DNA of 64,000 nucleotides, taken from positions 46,198 to 110,197 of the forward strand of contig CAZSKP010000015.1 of NCBI GenBank assembly GCA_964607485.1, in the 5' to 3' direction. Shown piece by piece: positions 51,520 through 63,852 of the stretch (its first letter is position 1; each line of letters opens with the position of its first letter). The position numbers and the translations under genes were made by a program. The DNA comes from an uncultured bacterium. GTDB taxonomy: Bacteria > Abyssobacteria > SURF-5. The notes beneath the pieces are model-generated. The model was not told where the DNA came from. It ran no database searches and saw only the letters and a program-made list of their open reading frames with translations.

Positions 51520-53823
51520 CTAAGCGGAGGGTCGGAAGAGAAGAAGAAACAGGCTCCCCACGTTCAGTAATGAGGCGGCGACGCACGCCCAGGGGATGCC
51601 GAGAACCGGGATGAGGAGGGCGGTCGTGAGCATCGCTCCGAGGCAGGAGCCGAGCAGGTCTACTCCGTAGGTGTAACCGGCGGAACGAGCCACGCCGGGC
51701 GCCTCCGCGAGCCACAGCGCGTTGGCCAGCGGAAACTGCAAGCCGCCGACGAATCCCGCGAGGAAAGCCAGCAGCGGAAATGCCGCTTGTGCCTGAAGCG
51801 CGAACGCGCGCGCCGTCGGGTCGGCCTCGCCCGCCCGCGAGAAGATGACGAGCGCTCCCAGCAGCAGCATCGGATACGCACACACCGCCGCCTGAATCAG
51901 GACGAACGCGCGCCGGCCGGCGCCGCCCTTCTCGATGAATCGGCCGATGGCGGCGGCTCCGACCGTCAGCCCCATCATGAACGCCGTGATGATTATCGCC
52001 ACCTTGTAGTACACGTACCCGTGTATCGCCTGGAACCCCAACAGAGTGACGACCTCGATGGTTATCTCGGCGAAGCCGGTCGTGCCGACGGCGACGAGAA
52101 TGGATTTCGGCCCCCAGGCCAGCGGGAACAGTCGCTGTGTCAATATGGCGGCGAGGAACACCGCAGCTATGGCCGTCACGAGCCAGGACGGGCGCACTCG
52201 CGAAAAGGCGGCGAGAATCCTGCCGGAAGTGTCCTCGAACTGCTTGCTCCACAGGACCGCGTGGTAGTAGTAGCACACGGGGGCGAGGTCGGTGTTGACG
52301 CGTGCCACGGCGGTCGCCAGCGCCTCGTCGAGCCGCTCCTTGCGTTCCTCCGACAACCGGAAAGGCAGATAGTATTCCCTCATGAAGAGCAGCCGGTTCG
52401 TTATCCCTCGCTCCTTGAGACGCTTGAGCAGAGTGGCGCTGTCGAGCGTCAGGATTCCCGGCTTGTTACATGCCAGAAAGATGTTCGTCTCGCCGGGAAC
52501 CACCTTCACGTCGGGGAACACTTCGCGGAGCGTCTTGTCCAGGCATCCCAGAAACTGGCTCAACTCGGGCGAGATGTAGTTCTCGGCGGAATTCACCCGA
52601 AACGACAGGATTCCATCGGCAGCCAGCCTGCTCTTGCATTCGCGGAAAAACTCGAGCGTGTAGAATCGGTTTATCAGCGCGGTGTACGGGTCGGGCAGGT
52701 TTACGATGATGACGTCATAGGTTTCGCCGCTCTGTTTGACAAACAGCCGGCCGTCGACGGTGTGCACGCTCACTCTCGGGTCGTCGAGCGCGTCGGTGAT
52801 GTCGGGCGGGAAAAACCGTCTGACCAACTGGATAACAAGAGGGTCGAGCTCGAGATAGTCAACGTGTTCGACCGGATGCTTGAGCACTTCGTTCAGCGAG
52901 CCGCTCACGCCGCCCCCGATGAGAAGCACTCTCTTGGGAGACGGATGCTCGAGAAGGGCGAAGTGAACCGCCTCCTCGGCCGAAAATCTGTCCGGGTGAG
53001 AAAACATCAGCAGTCCGTTTTCGTAGAGCGACTTCTGTTCCTCCTCCTCGACGAATGTGATGTTTCCATAAATCGAATCTTCCGAGTACGTCACGTGCCG
53101 CTCTCCCCACACCCACCCCAGCGTGAGCGTGCGAAGCCGGTCGGCTCCTCCGAAAAAGGCCGCAGCCGCCACCGCGACTGTCAGTACAGAGACCACTATC
53201 GCGGCGGGTCGCAACCGCCTGTCCATCGCGAGCATCGCCCCAGATGCCGCCAGGTTGAGAACGAGCAGCGTGCACGCGATCTCGGAGGGGTCGAGTGTCC
53301 ACACAAGAACCCATGCGAAAGCGATTCCCCCAATGGCCGCGCCGAGCGCCTCGTATATGTACACCGACCCTATCGAGACGGCCGCCTCCTCCTCGGTGCT
53401 CCACACGTGACAGAAGAGGGCGAACAAGAACCCGAGCAGAAAGCACAGGGGCGCCAGCACGAGGAAGGAGGAGACGATGATGGGGAAGTAGCCGACGATT
53501 TCGCCGGTGGAGGCGCGTCGGAGAAACAGGGGGATCGCCCTCACGCACATCAGGGAGCCGACGCTCGCCAGCCCGAGCAGCGCCTGGAGGATAGCAAGCG
53601 CCGAGAGGCGGCCGAATATCTTGACCCTGGGCACGAGCAGCCCCGCCAGAAGGCTTCCGAGTCCCACCCAGAACAGCCAGCCGCCGAGCAGGATGCCGAG
53701 CGAGAGCTCGTTGCCGTAGAAGACGACGATGAGCTCACGCATGAGCAGCACCTGGCCCACCATCGAGGTGAATCCGAGCGCAGCGAACAAATGGAGGGGC
53801 TTCTTCATCTCTCGCAGGCTCAT
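51520..53823 (-). CDS. Fused membrane domain / spermidine synthase-like SAM-fold protein
   Basis: N-terminal TMs (QVLLMREL..FYGNE), HPSPKRVLLIGGG, ELDP, DGR, YDVIIVNLPDP, C-terminal TMs with YGVDLLGSCLG. Confidence 0.88.
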   Translation of the reverse strand: MSLREMKKPLHLFAALGFTSMVGQVLLMRELIVVFYGNELSLGILLGGWLFWVGLGSLLAGLLVPRVKIFGRLSALAILQALLGLASVGSLMCVRAIPLFLRRASTGEIVGYFPIIVSSFLVLAPLCFLLGFLFALFCHVWSTEEEAAVSIGSVYIYEALGAAIGGIAFAWVLVWTLDPSEIACTLLVLNLAASGAMLAMDRRLRPAAIVVSVLTVAVAAAAFFGGADRLRTLTLGWVWGERHVTYSEDSIYGNITFVEEEEQKSLYENGLLMFSHPDRFSAEEAVHFALLEHPSPKRVLLIGGGVSGSLNEVLKHPVEHVDYLELDPLVIQLVRRFFPPDITDALDDPRVSVHTVDGRLFVKQSGETYDVIIVNLPDPYTALINRFYTLEFFRECKSRLAADGILSFRVNSAENYISPELSQFLGCLDKTLREVFPDVKVVPGETNIFLACNKPGILTLDSATLLKRLKERGITNRLLFMREYYLPFRLSEERKERLDEALATAVARVNTDLAPVCYYYHAVLWSKQFEDTSGRILAAFSRVRPSWLVTAIAAVFLAAILTQRLFPLAWGPKSILVAVGTTGFAEITIEVVTLLGFQAIHGYVYYKVAIIITAFMMGLTVGAAAIGRFIEKGGAGRRAFVLIQAAVCAYPMLLLGALVIFSRAGEADPTARAFALQAQAAFPLLAFLAGFVGGLQFPLANALWLAEAPGVARSAGYTYGVDLLGSCLGAMLTTALLIPVLGIPWACVAASLLNVGSLFLLLFRPSA

Positions 53824-53854
53824 TCTGTGACCGATTGACCGACTCGTCTCAACG

Positions 53855-54277
53855 TCAGTGAAGGAGAGCGATGCCGGCAACGACCAGTATCGTCCCAAAC
53901 AGCTTCTGGACTGTCAAGCTTTCGCCCAGCAATAGGACCGCCATAATGAACGCGATGAGCGGGAAACCGCCGACGATTGGCACCACCCGGCTTGCCTCCG
54001 CATATTTGAGGGCCTTGTAGTACGTCCACTGGCCCAGCAGGCCCGAAAACAGGCCCGAAAGAATGATGAAGAACCACGACCTCGCGTCCACTCCCTGCCA
54101 TGCGCGTTCGCGTAAGGATATGGCGACGGCCGCTCCCGCCACGAGCGATATCGCAAAGCTGCGCGCCGCCACTCCCGCCATCGGCTGCAACTTGCTCAGC
54201 GCGAGCTTGTCGAAAATGGATGCGCTGCCCCAGAAGAGTGTGGTCAACAGCGCGAACAGAAAAGCTTGATATGGCAT
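53855..54277 (-). CDS. EamA/DMT family small transporter
   Basis: FWG...IFDKLAL, YYKALKY.EASRVVPI, LLLGESLT. Confidence 0.9.
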   Translation of the reverse strand: MPYQAFLFALLTTLFWGSASIFDKLALSKLQPMAGVAARSFAISLVAGAAVAISLRERAWQGVDARSWFFIILSGLFSGLLGQWTYYKALKYAEASRVVPIVGGFPLIAFIMAVLLLGESLTVQKLFGTILVVAGIALLH

Positions 54278-54363: not shown

Positions 54364-55635
54364 TCATCGCCAGACAAACCATATGAAAAGGTACGCGGTG
54401 AAGGTGGCCACCAGTGTAAACGGCACTCCGATTCTCGCAAACTCGCGCAGGCTCACATGGTGGCCGCGTCTGGAAAGGATGCCGACGCCGACGATGTTGG
54501 CGGAAGCTCCGATGGGCGTGATGTTGCCGCCGAGGCTGGCGCCGATGAGCAGGCCGAACATGAGCAGCGCCTGGGAGACGCCCATGTCGGCGGCCAGGCT
54601 CTGCGCAACGGGCAGCATCGCGAGCAGATAGGGCACGTTATCGACGAACGCAGAGAAGAGGACGGAGATCCAGACGATGAGCGAATAGGCCACAAAGACA
54701 TTGTCACCCGACATTTTCTCAAACACGATTGTGATGTCGCCTATCCAGCCGACGCGGGTGAGCGCTCCCACCACGACGAATACTCCCATCAGAAAAAACG
54801 TGGTCTGCCAGTCGAGGGAGGTGAACAGCCTTATCACGTTTCCCTTCTGCGCCGCCGCGTACCACACGAACCCTGCAACGCCGAAGACCATGCAGATGAT
54901 GCCCGCCATGTACCCGAATCCCGGGTCGGCGAGGGACGAAAGCGCGAGGAGCACGATCATACCCACGAGCATGAGCGGAGGCGTCCACGTCTTCACCCTC
55001 TGTGTTCGCTCGATCTGAATCGATTGTTTCATGCTGCGGAAGATGAAGTAGAGCGCCGCGAACGAGGCGATGGCGCCCAATTGCACACCGAAGAAGATGC
55101 TCGGCTTTCCCATGTAGAAGAAGAAGTCGTTGAAACTCATCTTCGCGAAACCGGCCAGGAGCATGCTCGGAGGGTCGCCTATCAGCGTGGCCGCGCCTTG
55201 CAGATTGGAGCTTATCGAGAGCCCGATTATCATCGGAACGGGGGAGATGTGCAGCCGGTCGGTTATGGCAAGCGCGACGGGCGCAACAATCAGGACGGTC
55301 GCTACGTTTTCCACAAAGGCGGAGATGAACGACGTGAGGGCGCATATTGCGATGACCGCCCACACGGCGCTCCGAGTTCTCTGCACGACCAGCTCGGCCA
55401 GGTAAGCGGGCGTGTTCGACGCCATGAACAGCTCGGCCACGACCAGCGTTCCCCAGAAGATGCCCATCACGTTCCAGTTGATCAGCGTGAACGCCTCGAG
55501 CGGGCCGACCACGCCCAACACGATCAGCGCGAGGGCGCCGAGGACGGCCGAGTGCATCCTGCGTCGGGGAATGAATACCAGCGCGAAGTAAGTGCCGATG
55601 AAGATTATGAGAGCTGCGTATCTGTCAAATTGCAA
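54364..55635 (-). CDS. ArsB/NhaD (ion transporter superfamily) permease
   Basis: ISAFVENV, SNLQGAATLIGDPPS, SAFVDNVPY, LGGNITPIGASAN. Confidence 0.9.
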   Translation of the reverse strand: MQFDRYAALIIFIGTYFALVFIPRRRMHSAVLGALALIVLGVVGPLEAFTLINWNVMGIFWGTLVVAELFMASNTPAYLAELVVQRTRSAVWAVIAICALTSFISAFVENVATVLIVAPVALAITDRLHISPVPMIIGLSISSNLQGAATLIGDPPSMLLAGFAKMSFNDFFFYMGKPSIFFGVQLGAIASFAALYFIFRSMKQSIQIERTQRVKTWTPPLMLVGMIVLLALSSLADPGFGYMAGIICMVFGVAGFVWYAAAQKGNVIRLFTSLDWQTTFFLMGVFVVVGALTRVGWIGDITIVFEKMSGDNVFVAYSLIVWISVLFSAFVDNVPYLLAMLPVAQSLAADMGVSQALLMFGLLIGASLGGNITPIGASANIVGVGILSRRGHHVSLREFARIGVPFTLVATFTAYLFIWFVWR

Positions 55636-55690: not shown

Positions 55691-56353
55691 TCACATCTTG
55701 CCGCCCGATCCCATCTGAATGATTATCGAAATGATGCCCCGGCGCACCATCATCACGCCTATGGCCGCGAGCAAGAGACTGACCACCTTGGCCATTCCCT
55801 TTGCGCCGTTCTCACCCATGAACCCCAGAATCTTGTTGGCATTGAGCAGCGCAACGGCGACGATTCCGAGGTTTATCAGGAGGCTCGCCATCGTGGGCCA
55901 CACGCCGTAGAGGTCGAGCATCATGATGAGCACGGTCAGCACGGCGGGCCCGATTATGAGCGGCGTCCCTATCGGCACAACGCCTATTTCGGAGGAGGAT
56001 TCCCTCTGGGGTTTGCCGCTCCAGACGAGATCGACAATCGCCAGAAAGAAAAGCAGCGCGCCCCCGGCGATCTGAAAGTCGGCCACGGTTATCCCCAACA
56101 GCTTGAACACCGTCTTGCCGACAAGGAGAAACGCTATGGATATTACGAAGGCGGTCACGATGGACTGCATGGCGATTCTGCGTTTTTGCTCTGCGGGAAT
56201 TCCGCTGGTCAGGCCCGTGTACAGAGGAATGATCCCGATGATGTCGATAGCGACGAAGAGCGGGATGAACGTGTGGATATAGGGGGCCATGAGTTTGAAG
56301 TATTCGTGCCAAAAGGTGTTCATCAGAGTGTTGGAGTGTGGAATCAGGCTCAC
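55691..56353 (-). CDS. MarC family membrane protein (start approximate)
   Basis: LFVAIDIIG..P, FQIAGG, VVPIGTPLIIGP, LLLAAIGV. Confidence 0.92.
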   Translation of the reverse strand: MSLIPHSNTLMNTFWHEYFKLMAPYIHTFIPLFVAIDIIGIIPLYTGLTSGIPAEQKRRIAMQSIVTAFVISIAFLLVGKTVFKLLGITVADFQIAGGALLFFLAIVDLVWSGKPQRESSSEIGVVPIGTPLIIGPAVLTVLIMMLDLYGVWPTMASLLINLGIVAVALLNANKILGFMGENGAKGMAKVVSLLLAAIGVMMVRRGIISIIIQMGSGGKM

Positions 56354-56508
56354 GGCCTGATACGGGACAATGCGCCAGAGCAGATTCAGGCGGAATTATA
56401 GAGTATAAGCGGAGGCATGTCAATCGAGTGCAGTATCCGAGCGACAGGAGATGCCTTTTCCAAACTTTTCATCGAAGAAATGAGAAGCCCATGCGGGGAT
56501 AAGAATGC

Positions 56509-56538
56509 TTGACAGAAGGCCGCTTTCTTTGGTACTAT
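56509..56538 (+). promoter_or_regulatory. sigma70 promoter ahead of riboswitch 1
   Basis: TTGACA-N18-TACTAT with extended -10 TG. Confidence 0.65.
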
Positions 56539-56556
56539 AACCCATGGGAAATTTGC

Positions 56557-56605
56557 GGTGATGGAGTTCACCCAATAACCGCCCATCCGGGCTGATAACT
56601 CCTAC
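56557..56605 (+). ncRNA. Fluoride (crcB) riboswitch 1, upstream of the dynamin-like gene
   Basis: GGTGATGGAGTTCACC-CAATAACC-GCCC-ATCC-GGGC-TGATAACTCCTAC: P1 GGTGA/TCACC, pseudoknot GGAGT/ACTCC, conserved GATGG and CTGAT...CTAC. Confidence 0.88.
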
Positions 56606-56686
56606 CAAAGCTCTTGCTCTGGCGGGAGTTGGTTTGGATGGTTCATGCAGCTCCTTCCAGAGGTGAAAATGGAAGGAGTTTTTGTT

Positions 56687-58540
56687 ATGGACCACCGGGC
56701 TCATGAGTCACCCCCTTTTGCTCCCGGCGCTGAACCCACGGCCAGGCCCAAACAGGCTGAGATAATCAAGAGCAACAACGTCTTCGTTCCCGACGACCTG
56801 GCGACGTTGCTGCGTCAGGCGCTTGAACGCGTTTCCGGTCTTGGGCCAGAGTTTTCCTCGGAATCCGGGAGGCTTCGCGACCTATCTGATCGCCTTGGCG
56901 AAGGCCGGTTTCACCTGGCGGTTCTCGGCCAGTTCAAACGCGGAAAGAGCACACTGCTGAATGCGCTCCTCGGCGAGCCCATCTTGCCGACCTCCGTCAT
57001 TCCGCTCACAGCCATTCCCACATTTGTCCGCGTGGGCGAGAAGCTGAGAGTCAGAGTCCTGTACGAGAACGACAATGCCGCCGATGAATTCGCCCCGCAT
57101 ACAGGGGAAGAGGCGGCGAAGATTTTGTCGCGGTTTGTGACCGAGGCGGGCAACCCGAAGAACACGCTTGGCGTTTCCAGTGTCGAGCTGTTTCATCCGG
57201 CCGGTATCCTCCGGAAGGGCGTGGTCCTGATCGACACCCCCGGCATAGGCTCCACGTTCCGGCACAACACGGAGGCCACCCTCAATTTTCTGCCACAGTG
57301 CGATGCCGCACTGTTCCTTGTTTCTGCCGACCCTCCCGTGACTGAGGTGGAAACTGAGTTCCTCAGTCAGGTCCGCTCGAAGGTGACTCGTCTGTTTTTT
57401 ATCCTCAATAAAGTGGACTATCTGGATGGGGACGAACTCGACGCAGCTCTGCAGTTTTTCAAGAAGATTCTGAAGGAGCGGGCTGGCATCGAGGAAGAGA
57501 CCCCCATCTTCTGCGTATCCGCAAGAGTGGGGCTGAACGCGCGGGCGGCAAATGACCCTGCGACATGGGCAAAAAGCGGCCTGATGGAGGTCGAAAAACA
57601 TTTGGTTGACTTTCTTGCCCAAGAAAAAGCCGCGGTGTTGAGGAATGCGGTCTCAAGAAAGGCGTGCGATGTTGTAGAAAACGTTCTCATGAGGCTGCGC
57701 CTGGTCATCCGCTCATGGCAAATGCCTTTGGAAGACCTTCAGCAACGACTGGAGGTCTTCGGGCGGAGGCTCGCAGAGATAGCCCGTGAAAGGATGATTG
57801 CGGATGATGTTCTGAAAGGCGACCGCAGACGTATGCACGAATTCCTGCAGGAGCAGTCCGAGGAGCTTCGCAGAGAAGCAAGGGTTTACCTTGAAGGTGT
57901 CATCAAAGAGGCTTCGGCTGTGGCTGGTGAGGGTGAGGTCGTTTCGGAGACCCTGCAAGCGCGCATGGCAGGTGTCATCCCCGACTTCTTCGAGCATCAG
58001 TTGGGCGTGACATCGGAATTGTTTGAGAAGAAGGCGGCGGAGGTTCTCGGTGTCCATCAACAAAGGGCGGACTCCTTGATCGAGTCTGTCCGAAAGGCCG
58101 CTGCCGACTTATTCGATGTTCCCTATCATGCGCCCGAGAGCACAGGAGCTTTTAAGATGTACCGCGAGCCTCATTGGGTCACGCACAAGTGGTCTTCGAC
58201 GATAAACCCGATCCCTCCAGGCGCAATCGACAGGCTCTTGCCCTCGCGCGTTCGAAAGGCAAGAGTCATGAAACGGCTGCTAGATGAGATTCATGTGCTG
58301 GTAGTGAGCAACGTTGAGAACTTGCGATGGGCCACCTATCAGAGTATCGAGCAAACATTCCTTCGCTTTGGCTCCGCCCTCGACGAGCGGCTTGCTGACA
58401 CGATATCGGCCACACACGGGGCCATTCAGGCGGCGCTTGAAAAACGCAAAGCGCATTCGCAGTTTATTGCCGGCGAAAGTTCGAGATTGCAGTCATTTGT
58501 TGACGGTCTGACAAAGATAAAGGAACGCATTGAGAGATAA
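56687..58540 (+). CDS. Bacterial dynamin-like GTPase
   Basis: LAVLGQFKRGKSTLLNAL (G1), PLT (G2), LIDTPG (G3), LNKVD (G4), CVSA, long helical stalk; ATG 56687 after AAGGAG. Confidence 0.92.
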   Translation: MDHRAHESPPFAPGAEPTARPKQAEIIKSNNVFVPDDLATLLRQALERVSGLGPEFSSESGRLRDLSDRLGEGRFHLAVLGQFKRGKSTLLNALLGEPILPTSVIPLTAIPTFVRVGEKLRVRVLYENDNAADEFAPHTGEEAAKILSRFVTEAGNPKNTLGVSSVELFHPAGILRKGVVLIDTPGIGSTFRHNTEATLNFLPQCDAALFLVSADPPVTEVETEFLSQVRSKVTRLFFILNKVDYLDGDELDAALQFFKKILKERAGIEEETPIFCVSARVGLNARAANDPATWAKSGLMEVEKHLVDFLAQEKAAVLRNAVSRKACDVVENVLMRLRLVIRSWQMPLEDLQQRLEVFGRRLAEIARERMIADDVLKGDRRRMHEFLQEQSEELRREARVYLEGVIKEASAVAGEGEVVSETLQARMAGVIPDFFEHQLGVTSELFEKKAAEVLGVHQQRADSLIESVRKAAADLFDVPYHAPESTGAFKMYREPHWVTHKWSSTINPIPPGAIDRLLPSRVRKARVMKRLLDEIHVLVVSNVENLRWATYQSIEQTFLRFGSALDERLADTISATHGAIQAALEKRKAHSQFIAGESSRLQSFVDGLTKIKERIER

Positions 58541-59463: not shown

Positions 59464-59489
59464 AAAAAACCCCGCTTTGCAAGCGGGTT
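59464..59489 (-). terminator. Intrinsic terminator in the crcB leader
   Basis: Minus strand AACCCGCTT-GCA-AAGCGGGG-TTTTTT between the aptamer and the start codon. Confidence 0.75.
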
Positions 59490-59595: not shown

Positions 59596-59624
59596 ATTAT
59601 ACCGGCAATCCTCGCTGAGGTCAA
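59596..59624 (-). promoter_or_regulatory. sigma70 promoter of the crcB-DUF190 unit
   Basis: Minus strand TTGACC-N17-TATAAT just upstream of the aptamer. Confidence 0.75.
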
Positions 59625-61618: not shown

Positions 61619-62374
61619 ATGATCGACCTCGCAAGTATGATAGGCAATATCCCCCAGGGCCTTGGACCTTTCCAAAACTCGCTGGCGAATCTGGCGCCGT
61701 TGGCCGAACATCAGGCTGCCCAGGCTCCAGCCGATTCGGTAGAGCTGAGCTCGTCCCTCAAGGATGGTCAGAGCTTCACCGTAGAGATACTTATGGTTCA
61801 GGTGAGCATGCAGGTCTCTTCCCGGGTAGGGGCAACCGACTCGGTCCAGCAGGCATACTCCTCCCCGCTCGACCTGTCCCCCGATGCCACGGCGAACCGA
61901 ATATTTCAGTTCTCGATGGGAATGTTTGGCATATATCAGGCGCAGCACCCCGACGAGCCTTCCGACGTCGCGCTCGCCAACTTCGAGGAACTGGTGCGCG
62001 GCGCCATAGACGAAGGCTTCGACGATGCGCTCCAGATACTCGACAAGTTGGGAAAACTCGATGAGGCGACGAACGAGTTCGTGAACAATACCCGCTCGAT
62101 TCTCGGAAGACTTCTCGACGCATTCTTCAGCCCTGAAGAAGGCGACTTATCCGGGGACTCTCCGTCGTCGGATAATCCCGCCGGGGTCTCCGAGGCGTTT
62201 TTCCAGCTCGAATATCAGTATTTTTCTCTCCAGGCATCATCCATCCAGAAGGGAACGGACGGGCTTTCCACGCATCAGTCCGAAGCTTCTGTAAACGTGC
62301 AGGCCGAGACACTCAGCATTTCGGCAGCCTACCGGCAGGGAGTGCAAGAGCCGGTCCTCCAGATCGTCGCATAG
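61619..62374 (+). CDS. DUF5610-like hypothetical protein
   Basis: LSPDATANRIFQFS..F..Y...HP...F...RGAIDEGFDDA..IL pattern recalled for DUF5610; GGAGG SD. Confidence 0.65.
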   Translation: MIDLASMIGNIPQGLGPFQNSLANLAPLAEHQAAQAPADSVELSSSLKDGQSFTVEILMVQVSMQVSSRVGATDSVQQAYSSPLDLSPDATANRIFQFSMGMFGIYQAQHPDEPSDVALANFEELVRGAIDEGFDDALQILDKLGKLDEATNEFVNNTRSILGRLLDAFFSPEEGDLSGDSPSSDNPAGVSEAFFQLEYQYFSLQASSIQKGTDGLSTHQSEASVNVQAETLSISAAYRQGVQEPVLQIVA

Positions 62375-62673
62375 GGACAGTGCCGACGCTTCAGACGCGA
62401 GCCCGTTTTTTCCGCGTTCGCTCGATGCCCAAATTTGTACGCGGTCCCGGCCCGATGGCGCTGTCACCGGAGCCCTGTTGATCTTCCAAAGATATATCTC
62501 TATTGCTCCCGCTTCAGCGTTCTCAAATCCTCCCGAGCGGGCCTGATTTCGTAAGTCGTTTGTTTTCAAATTATTATCACAACACGAAGGCGCCGGCTTT
62601 CCAGACACGACGGTGCTCTCTCCGCGCACACCCGCTTCCTTACCGGGCCGCAGGCGGGTTTGATGCAGGCTCT

Positions 62674-62689
62674 TGGTACGAATATTGCT
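62674..62689 (+). promoter_or_regulatory. sigma54-like -24/-12 promoter
   Basis: TGGTACGAATATTGCT (GG-N10-GC), with an AT-rich IHF-like tract at about 62552-62580. Confidence 0.6.
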
Positions 62690-62748
62690 TTTTCGCGCGA
62701 AGGTATTGTCTTGTATTCCAAAACCACCAATGCCGGGAGGTGACGCGA

Positions 62749-63852
62749 GTGTCCTTTATCGATGAACACAGTGGACGTCAGCAAGAGGTTGATTTCTTGG
62801 ATAACCTGAAGGAAGACCTGGGCGTCCTTGAAAACTCGTGGAACAAGAAAAAGCTGAGCAGAAAGAAGGTAGTCAAGCATTTTATTGGGATCGTGGATTC
62901 CATCCTTGAAATTGCGCAGTCCGAATCGTTCGAGCCGTTCGAACCTGTCTGCGCCCATATCAGGGAATTCCTGATGTCGGTCGCAGGCGGAAAGGCCGAG
63001 CTGGAGCAGAGCTTCTGGAGCATGACGCTGGAACTGATGGACATTCTCAGGGACTCACTTCGCGACGGAGCCGTCGCGCTTGCCGATTTGGAAGAATGGA
63101 GATCGGGCTGGTGGGCGGATGCACCGCCTCAAGGCTCTCAGCAGGAGGACCCCACCGGCGATTTCGACCTCCGGGAGTCACCACTCCAGGAGTCACCACC
63201 GGAGGAAGTGGACGATAACGTGGAAGCGCTTGGCCGGGAGGAAGACGAAATGGGCGAAACTTCACAAATGGACGCAAAAGAACTGCTTCAAAAGGCGCAG
63301 GAAGCTTTATCGTCTGGAAACGGCGATAACGCCAAGGAACTCGCGCTGAAAGCGGCCGAACTGATTGCAAAGCTGGAAGCCGAGGAAGCCCAAAAGAGGG
63401 AAAAGGGACTGAGAGACGACCTCGAAATGGCGGCGCATGTGGAAGTTGAGGCTGAAGAAACGCTGAAGCACCTCGTGGAGGAATTGGACGAACGAGAACG
63501 GGAACTCACCCCCATGCGCAACCGTCTCGCGGACGCTCAGGCATCGTTCGAAACCCAGCAGCGCGCATGCCACCAACTGAAGACCCAGATAGACGAAACC
63601 GAAGCTGAGCTGCAATCGCTCGAGGAGAAACACAAGCGCCTGCTCGACGAGTTCCACGAAGCCATGCCGGCACGCGACGCGGCCGAGCGCGAATGCTCGA
63701 AGCTCGAAACGGAAATGGAGAGGCTGGCTCCGGAAGTCGAGACCATAAGCGACAGCGTCAACGCCGCCGAGACTCAGCTGGCAAAGGCCCGGAAAAAAAG
63801 AGAAGAAATAGAAGCGGAACTGGAAAAGCTCACCCAGAAAACTGCGGTATAA
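62749..63852 (+). CDS. Hypothetical protein: HPt/CheA-P1-like helical N-domain, acidic linker, long coiled coil
   Basis: GTG start after GGAGGTG; four-helix pattern FL....E.L..LE; long heptad-rich acidic C-terminal half. Confidence 0.7.
   Translation: MSFIDEHSGRQQEVDFLDNLKEDLGVLENSWNKKKLSRKKVVKHFIGIVDSILEIAQSESFEPFEPVCAHIREFLMSVAGGKAELEQSFWSMTLELMDILRDSLRDGAVALADLEEWRSGWWADAPPQGSQQEDPTGDFDLRESPLQESPPEEVDDNVEALGREEDEMGETSQMDAKELLQKAQEALSSGNGDNAKELALKAAELIAKLEAEEAQKREKGLRDDLEMAAHVEVEAEETLKHLVEELDERERELTPMRNRLADAQASFETQQRACHQLKTQIDETEAELQSLEEKHKRLLDEFHEAMPARDAAERECSKLETEMERLAPEVETISDSVNAAETQLAKARKKREEIEAELEKLTQKTAV

Follow-up and report, generated by a model that had tools for sequence, protein, structure and literature searches.

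Fluoride riboswitches are known to act as ON switches, in which an aptamer of the Rfam family RF01734 is opposed by a stem that competes for its 3' pseudoknot strand. The published cargo comprises crcB/Fluc, eriC-F/CLC-F, Na+/H+ antiporters, enolase, pyrophosphatase, HAD proteins, formate hydrogen lyase, mutS-like genes and usp (accessible parts of PMC2864571 and PMC11139923). Here we describe a locus from an uncultured bacterium of the SURF-5 lineage (Abyssobacteria; GenBank assembly GCA_964607485.1, contig CAZSKP010000015.1, positions 46,198 to 110,197 of the forward strand), in which such an aptamer precedes a gene for a bacterial dynamin-like protein (DLP); the whole stretch of 64,000 nucleotides that was analyzed is referred to as the window. 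The locus has in common with canonical fluoride riboswitch operons the aptamer at full score, the competing stem and a predicted ON logic, as well as the regulon neighborhood, i.e., a crcB-DUF190 unit 1 kb away in the window and enolase, NhaP-type exchangers, MFS, Usp and MutS-like proteins near relatives of the GTPase. It differs from them in that the regulated gene encodes a dynamin-like GTPase.

The protein also has described relatives. The gene for IniA, from the iniBAC locus of Mycobacterium, is induced by isoniazid and ethambutol, and IniA binds lipid via a loop and has no hydrophobic paddle. IniA is the closest fold to the window protein by Foldseek (PDB 6j73 and 6j72, E about 1e-21), at a sequence identity of 19% and TM-scores of 0.33–0.37. 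The two are of similar size, consist of a single G domain and a helical stalk without transmembrane segment, and are both apparently induced by a toxic agent rather than constitutive (the PDB entry title for IniA reads "isoniazid inducible"), induction of the window protein by fluoride being a prediction from its leader. They differ in that the inducer here would be fluoride, sensed by an RNA and not by a protein regulator, and in that partners corresponding to IniB and IniC are absent. The bacterial dynamin-like protein BDLP of Nostoc punctiforme (2j68, 2j69, 2w6d) inserts a hydrophobic paddle into lipid. It is the best match in a profile search of PDB sequences, over G domain and neck (2j68, E 4.5e-33), and shares P-loop type and architecture with the window protein, whereas stalk similarity is marginal (domain 3, 1.9 bits) and the equivalent tip region, residues 477–520, is not hydrophobic. 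DynA of Bacillus subtilis belongs to the same superfamily but is a fused double DLP; the window protein has one G domain and is not a member of the DynA family NF052648 (75.7 bits against a cut-off of 1600), nor of the LeoA/HP0731 family NF041922 (15.4 bits against 325). A role in phage defense was considered and rejected, as PADLOC matches to the dynamin-type defense or vesiculation proteins LeoA and LeoBC (69.7 and 53.7 bits) are weak and reflect shared dynamin ancestry, a three-gene arrangement of the leoABC type is lacking, and the gene context is one of fluoride genes rather than defense.

A sequence-only reading of this DNA had placed a complete fluoride aptamer at 56557–56605, between a sigma-70 promoter and a single dynamin-like gene. 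This interval is the core of a full-length RF01734 match that scores well above the Rfam gathering threshold (Table 1). Alignment to the family consensus is near-perfect, with posterior probabilities that are mostly maximal (cmscan), and the two pseudoknot strands, GGAGU in the P1 loop (56563–56567) and ACUCC in the 3' tail (56598–56602), are complementary. The putative promoter was found ahead of the aptamer. The genes that follow the GTPase gene are convergent with it, which makes it monocistronic. Translation is likely to start at ATG 56687 rather than at the in-frame ATG 56645, as the open reading frame (ORF) from 56645 begins within the leader structures and lacks a ribosome-binding site.

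Table 1. Window coordinates of the riboswitch-GTPase unit and of the adjoining crcB unit.
Feature	Position	Strand	Evidence
Sigma-70-like promoter of the riboswitch-GTPase unit (putative)	56509..56538	+	TTGACA, 18 nt, TACTAT, TG extension; match at 10/12 consensus positions
Fluoride riboswitch aptamer, RF01734	56548..56611	+	Rfam cmscan, 55.9 bits against gathering 34, E 8.2e-13, model positions 1–64 of 64
Hairpin 1	56597–56611 / 56616–56630	+	In the minimum free energy fold; 56593–56632 alone, -18.4 kcal/mol
Predicted anti-terminator/anti-sequestor helix	56617–56631 with 56648–56663	+	Inferred from folded growing transcripts
Hairpin 2 and U-run (terminator-like)	56650–56659 / 56670–56679, to 56686	+	10-bp stem, -16.0 kcal/mol
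Dynamin-like GTPase gene, 617 aa	56687..58540	+	Translation, Dynamin_N match, G motifs, AlphaFold2 model, Foldseek
DUF190 (PII-like) gene, 121 aa	58659..59024	-	PF02641, E 2.6e-42; co-oriented behind crcB
crcB (Fluc fluoride channel family), 125 aa	59039..59416	-	PF02537, E 8.6e-25
Terminator-like hairpin between second aptamer and crcB	59471..59487	-	7 pairs, 5 of them G-C, then GTTTTTTGTG
Second fluoride aptamer, RF01734	59528..59592	-	55.1 bits, E 1.5e-12; absent from the sequence-only reading
Sigma-70-like promoter of the crcB unit	59596..59624	-	TTGACC, 17 nt, TATAAT; match at 11/12 consensus positions

The leader between aptamer and start codon folds into a structure that is more stable than shuffled sequences (z = -5.13, with 0 of 200 shuffles as good). 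Two hairpins had been proposed in it, one at 56597–56630 that captures the pseudoknot strand and one at 56651–56683 that is followed by a T-run and hides the Shine-Dalgarno sequence, and both were recovered. In the minimum free energy (MFE) fold the ACUCC strand is base-paired inside hairpin 1, which is therefore predicted to compete with the ligand-bound fold of the aptamer. Similarly, the stem of hairpin 2 encloses the Shine-Dalgarno sequence GGAAGGAG (56671–56678), and the hairpin is followed by UUUUUGUU (56679–56686), which directly abuts the ATG. As modeled, the leader is a complete expression platform that extends to the start codon.

To approximate the fluoride-bound state, the aptamer region was barred from pairing downstream, and transcripts of increasing length were folded. 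Without this constraint hairpin 1 formed first (-18.4 kcal/mol) and then hairpin 2. With it, transcripts ending between 56656 and 56674 formed the helix 56617–56631/56648–56663 (-15.4 to -24.0 kcal/mol), which was seen in silico only when the aptamer was kept from downstream pairing; it consists of the 3' arm of hairpin 1 and a segment that includes the 5' arm of hairpin 2. From 56680 onward the MFE structure of the constrained transcripts reverted to hairpin 2 (-28.8 kcal/mol), and an ON state would therefore need kinetic, co-transcriptional control. The alternative helices form, in these folds, a three-helix relay. The U-run next to the start codon also suggests co-transcriptional control, with occlusion of the Shine-Dalgarno sequence as a possible additional layer. 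In the absence of fluoride, hairpin 1 would take the 3' pseudoknot strand and hairpin 2 would form, leading to termination at the U-run, to a hidden Shine-Dalgarno sequence, or to both. When fluoride is present, the aptamer pseudoknot would retain its 3' strand, and the 3' arm of hairpin 1, thus freed, could pair with the 5' arm of hairpin 2 during transcription; hairpin 2 would then come too late, and the GTPase mRNA would be completed and translated. The unit is accordingly read as a predicted fluoride-ON riboswitch with a DLP as its sole cargo, both the ligand response and the kinetic control being predictions.

The pairing of aptamer and GTPase gene is conserved far beyond the window. More than 3,104 homologous proteins were found at E 1e-3 among 8,000 candidates scored, at least 150 cluster representatives (50% identity) match over the full length at E 1e-148 or better, and relatives are encoded by at least 565 of the 185,579 species in the genome collection. 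Carriers that are in culture include Carboxydothermus hydrogenoformans and Moorella/Neomoorella species, whose homologues are 52–54% identical. The best 80 of these at least 565 loci, all from other species and encoding proteins 45–58% identical to the window protein (758 kb in total), were scanned with Rfam at gathering thresholds. This gave 108 RF01734 aptamers spread over 73 of the 80 loci, all 73 with an aptamer upstream of the GTPase gene on the same strand, and the homologue count that the sequence-only reading had asked for thus does not refute the link. In 63 loci the aptamer is directly upstream, no more than 359 nt from the aligned region and at a median distance of 125 nt, and in 10 it lies 518–3,958 nt upstream with other same-strand ORFs between. 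No above-threshold aptamer was found in the remaining 7 loci; a permissive re-scan of six of them (all except L011) revealed sub-threshold aptamers at the expected position in L010 (30.9 bits) and L070 (28.6 bits). These scans replaced a regular-expression search for the aptamer core that had found 34 of the 80 loci; all 34 were confirmed and 39 were added. The P1 stems vary between loci by compensatory pairs (GGTG/CACC, GGGG/CCCC, GGCG/CGCC, GGAG/CTCC). By record titles and NCBI labels, nine bacterial phyla are represented among the loci with a direct aptamer (Thermodesulfobacteriota, Planctomycetota, Acidobacteriota, Bacillota, Spirochaetota, Myxococcota, Pseudomonadota, Calditrichota, and Omnitrophota), together with methanogenic archaea of the Methanoregulaceae and Methanomicrobiaceae. 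Judged from these genomes, the DLP clade looks like a dedicated member of the fluoride regulon.

Two or more aptamers are present in 28 of the 80 loci. In 11 (L022, L033, L045, L047, L052, L063, L072, L073, L074, L076, and L080) a second aptamer lies on the opposite strand at most 500 nt upstream of the GTPase gene, giving back-to-back divergent units. The same scans picked up a cobalamin riboswitch (L015, 883–1108, minus strand, 71.2 bits) and an Acido-Lenti-1 RNA (L011, 6265–6310, plus strand, 40.6 bits), both unrelated flank elements. The permissive re-scan gave a match to a group II intron domain just below threshold at the edge of L050 (71–141, plus strand, 39.8 bits against 40).

Within 4 kb of the homologues, ORFs of 70 aa or more were called greedily, longest first, and clustered by BLAST; Pfam was then run on a single representative of each cluster, 17 in all. 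Named in this way, the neighbors include enolase (24 loci), Na+/H+ exchangers (16 and 4 loci), MFS transporters (12), Usp (8), a prenyltransferase-like toroid protein (8), MutS-domain-V ATPases (7), TPR proteins (6), DUF190 (6), HEAT proteins (5), and CrcB (4), along with 38 additional dynamin-family ORFs. By these domain assignments, most of the recurrent neighbors belong to the classic fluoride-regulon families listed by Weinberg (2010, PMC2864571) and in the 2024 review (PMC11139923). The MutS-domain-V ATPases, of about 510 aa, occur in pairs between aptamer and GTPase gene in some operons (L034, L077), and probably correspond to the "mutS" genes that the 2010 study listed together with crcB RNAs. 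The toroid protein, of about 294 aa, has a weak match to the prenyltransferase alpha-alpha-toroid (E 2.7e-10); in L074 a toroid-like gene (463–1347) directly follows another aptamer at 393–455.

In the window itself the GTPase unit has a crcB gene with its own aptamer 1 kb away, a second point on which the expected association was found. CrcB matches PF02537 over residues 7–119 of 125 (87.5 bits against a cut-off of 32.9), while the NCBIfam CrcB equivalogs all score under their own cut-offs (best 99.8 bits against 129). The crcB-DUF190 unit is convergent with it, the two stop codons being separated by 118 nt. Only two RF01734 aptamers were found in the 4.7-Mb, 97.5%-complete genome, which sets the scale for the 108 in 758 kb of homologue loci. 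Both lie within 3 kb at this locus, and the GTPase gene therefore already lies within a small fluoride island.

The GTPase gene is the only dynamin-family gene of the genome; another Dynamin_N match was examined as a candidate second dynamin and turned out to be Der/EngA, a double GTPase that carries a KH domain. A search at E 1e-30 did not find the gene in any of 30 relatives sampled, of which 9 belong to the same family. A FastTree phylogeny of 85 rows (the window protein, 74 called GTPases and 10 paralogues of at least 450 aa, leaving out 28 shorter cluster members and 6 loci without a called GTPase ORF) was midpoint-rooted, and no direction of transfer is claimed from it. The 13 archaeal rows fall into a single clade (support 99) that joins a Spirochaetota group (96) within the bacterial diversity, and the seven aptamer-less rows are scattered, with 6 label changes and no more clustering than in shuffles. 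The GC content around the GTPase unit is 0.55–0.56 compared to 0.59–0.62 in the left flank, a mild dip that is not decisive for transfer. Together, the sole dynamin gene, its absence from the sampled relatives, the nested archaeal clade, the scattered aptamer-less rows and the GC dip fit a horizontally mobile stress gene that travels with its riboswitch.

The earlier assignment of the product to the dynamins was borne out by Pfam, with a Dynamin_N match at residues 77–243 (E 1.7e-29, 103.5 bits against a cut-off of 27). In an alignment of 27 homologues the P-loop GQFKRGKST (G81–T89), the switch-I T108, DTPG (D183–G186) and NKxD (N241, K242, D244) are invariant. Conservation extends over the full length, stalk helices included, with a mean column identity of 60%, and the motifs NxENLRWA and PxWV are invariant across phyla. 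The AlphaFold2 model (mean pLDDT, i.e., predicted local distance difference test, 79.8; predicted TM-score 0.55) shows a G domain followed by a long helical stalk (helices 314–344, 348–412, 420–476, and 520–616), with a poorly defined loop at 477–520 (pLDDT 55–66). Foldseek against the PDB returned solved DLPs at E-values of 1e-21 to 1e-11, headed by IniA 6j73 (E 1.3e-21) and followed by Nostoc BDLP 2j69, the Campylobacter DLP pair 5owv, SynDLP and mitofusins. The protein can be taken to be a DLP of the BDLP/IniA type, soluble or peripheral, with intact catalytic motifs. The names of ribosome GTPases (EngB, Era, Der) attached to some homologue sources were considered and ruled out, since the protein matches Dynamin_N, has a stalk and resembles solved DLPs in the Foldseek search.

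It is very probable that the riboswitch truly controls the GTPase gene as part of the fluoride response. The opposite explanation would be that the aptamer is an orphan, a remnant of rearrangement in front of an unrelated gene over which it exerts no meaningful control. The adjoining crcB unit and the slightly lower GC content do make some history of rearrangement or transfer likely; however, in 63 of the 80 homologue loci, all from other species, an aptamer directly precedes the GTPase gene in the same orientation, and the predicted expression platform is complete and abuts the start codon, so that an orphan seems extremely improbable. A different explanation accepts the control and gives it another purpose, namely that the GTPase is poisoned by fluoride and over-produced to offset the lost activity. 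Compensation is the usual rationale for enolase and pyrophosphatase under riboswitch control. It has been described for enolase (Stockbridge and Wackett, 2024, accessible parts of PMC11139923), and enolase is the commonest neighbor of the GTPase homologues. Against this, a housekeeping level would have to come from another dynamin-family gene, which the genome lacks, and the sole copy sits behind a leader that is predicted to be OFF by default. As 30 of 30 sampled relatives do without the gene, it does not appear to serve a housekeeping function in need of a top-up, and compensation is considered very improbable. The idea of a mere fluoride sink is implausible on stoichiometry, as a protein at micromolar concentration would face an ion at millimolar concentration.

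What the GTPase does under fluoride is a separate matter. By analogy with stress-induced DLPs such as IniA, its job may be membrane protection or remodeling, a proposal that we put forward only tentatively and rate at slightly under an even chance; the "membrane-remodeling" label of the sequence-only reading would seem to derive from dynamin family membership alone. The DLP would then assemble on the cytoplasmic membrane and protect, reseal or reorganize it under stress by fluoride or hydrogen fluoride (HF), alongside the separately switched CrcB channel next door. It is also conceivable that the DLP acts on a protein complex, the nucleoid or ribosomes, comparable to the clamp-binding dynamin CrfC. 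Such a non-membrane role would agree with the lack of a hydrophobic paddle or transmembrane segment, with the recurrence of MutS-V-like ATPases, TPR and HEAT proteins near relatives, and with the unusual conservation of the full length including the stalk, which suggests a specific conserved partner. On the other hand, the closest relatives in structure and sequence (IniA, BDLP, Cj-DLP1/2, mitofusins) are all membrane-active DLPs, the match to the CrfC model is limited to the P-loop (25.8 bits against 1146), and IniA itself binds lipid by a loop and without a hydrophobic paddle; we regard a non-membrane role as unlikely, albeit worth keeping in mind. Finally, fluoride could act twice, on the RNA switch and on the protein, where GDP-metal-fluoride (MgF3- or AlFx) would lock the G-domain dimer and turn the DLP into a tether, scaffold or sensor instead of a cycling GTPase. 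Metal fluorides promote G-domain dimers in the dynamin superfamily. A protein made only at high fluoride would have to run its GTPase cycle with the inhibitor present, its catalytic motifs are invariant, and dynamin structures with GDP-AlFx or described as "transition-like" are among the fold matches (8eew, 5gom, 9kff). The nucleotide pocket of the clade is, however, indistinguishable from that of other BDLPs in these sequence analyses, and dual action appears distinctly unlikely. Its most far-reaching form is somewhat less probable still: a pan-prokaryotic, horizontally traded "fluoride dynamin" that is switched on by the riboswitch and then frozen as a G-domain dimer by GDP-metal-fluoride, giving a membrane tether or scaffold that is gated by fluoride and serves to protect the envelope or to organize export. 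If true, it would be the first dynamin with a transition-state mimic as physiological effector, and it would expose an envelope arm of fluoride toxicity.

The explanation that we prefer combines the fluoride-ON unit, a DLP clade dedicated to the fluoride regulon and a membrane role, and several observations weigh against it. At equilibrium the full leader still holds hairpin 2 in the fluoride-bound proxy (-44.6 kcal/mol), and hairpin 2 is missing from the terminator scan of the window, which allows loops of up to 8 nt and not the 10 nt found here. A search for sequencing runs that contain this stretch returned three DNA entries of a single study, one of them probably the source sample, and no RNA run. 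Two loci with full 5-kb flanks (L020 and L049) remained without any aptamer when E-values up to 1 were allowed, and three more cannot be judged as the upstream sequence is missing (L011) or short (L050, 3.3 kb; L051, 0.9 kb). The names of neighbors come from single cluster representatives on crude ORF calls, and the GTPase ORF itself was not picked in 6 of the 80 loci. Many relatives adjoin a second DLP paralogue or TPR/HEAT proteins, whereas the window has no such partner, and a solo GTPase gene may be incomplete as a machine. Despite strong E-values, the TM-scores of the Foldseek matches are low, 0.3–0.46, as is expected when hinge conformations differ. A 19-residue Kyte-Doolittle scan found no transmembrane or strongly hydrophobic segment in the 617-aa protein; the top window, at 1.35, is located in the G domain, and the tip loop 477–520 is proline-rich, aromatic and basic rather than hydrophobic. 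This loop contains a conserved P-[YH]-W-V motif (residues 495–498), and together with the basic residues it could bind an interface. The conservation of the stalk, mentioned above in connection with a conserved partner, belongs to the same list. With these points taken into account, the preferred explanation as a whole is held with limited confidence, as somewhat more probable than not.

Other features of the window lie outside the two fluoride units. A perfect match to the sigma-70 promoter consensus (TTGACA, 17 nt, TATAAT; 12/12) at 56395–56423 on the minus strand is directed away from the riboswitch promoter and faces genes for a MarC-family membrane protein (55691–56353, minus strand) and a CitMHS/ArsB-type transporter (54364–55635, minus strand); the Rfam scan of the window found no aptamer before these two genes. 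Further away are genes for a protein of 792 aa that has a spermidine-synthase domain in its central part (51520–53898, minus strand), a DUF5610 protein (61619–62374, plus strand) and a coiled-coil protein of 449 aa that weakly matches DUF1771 (62503–63852, plus strand).

What is new here is the DLP family as a member of an already known regulon, that of the fluoride riboswitch. The sequence-only reading had presumed the link to be uncharacterized, and in agreement with this no publication was found in the literature searched that ties dynamins or DLPs to fluoride riboswitches or crcB, although a generic "GTP-binding" entry may exist in the tables or supplements of Baker et al. (2012). Neither "dynamin" nor "GTP"/"GTPase" occurs in the accessible parts of PMC2864571 and PMC11139923, and the accessible parts of PMC5473149 (McCown, 2017), PMC9971707, and PMC7266159 contain no "dynamin" and no "GTPase" in a relevant sense. 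The accessible parts of the 2024 review (PMC11139923) put the share under riboswitch regulation at only about 15% for Flucs and about 30% for CLC-Fs. With a direct upstream aptamer in 63–65 of the 80 GTPase loci (65 when the two sub-threshold aptamers are included), the association found here is tighter than these figures for exporters. It points to an arm of the fluoride response beyond export, pH homeostasis and the replacement of inhibited enzymes, and no such arm appears in the accessible parts of that review (PMC11139923). The finding may also be relevant for the engineering of fluoride-tolerant strains for organofluorine work. To our knowledge, most bacterial and archaeal DLPs have no known physiological trigger. 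The arrangement described here would tie a whole DLP clade to one defined, cheap and titratable signal, so that its function becomes directly testable by the addition of sodium fluoride (NaF).

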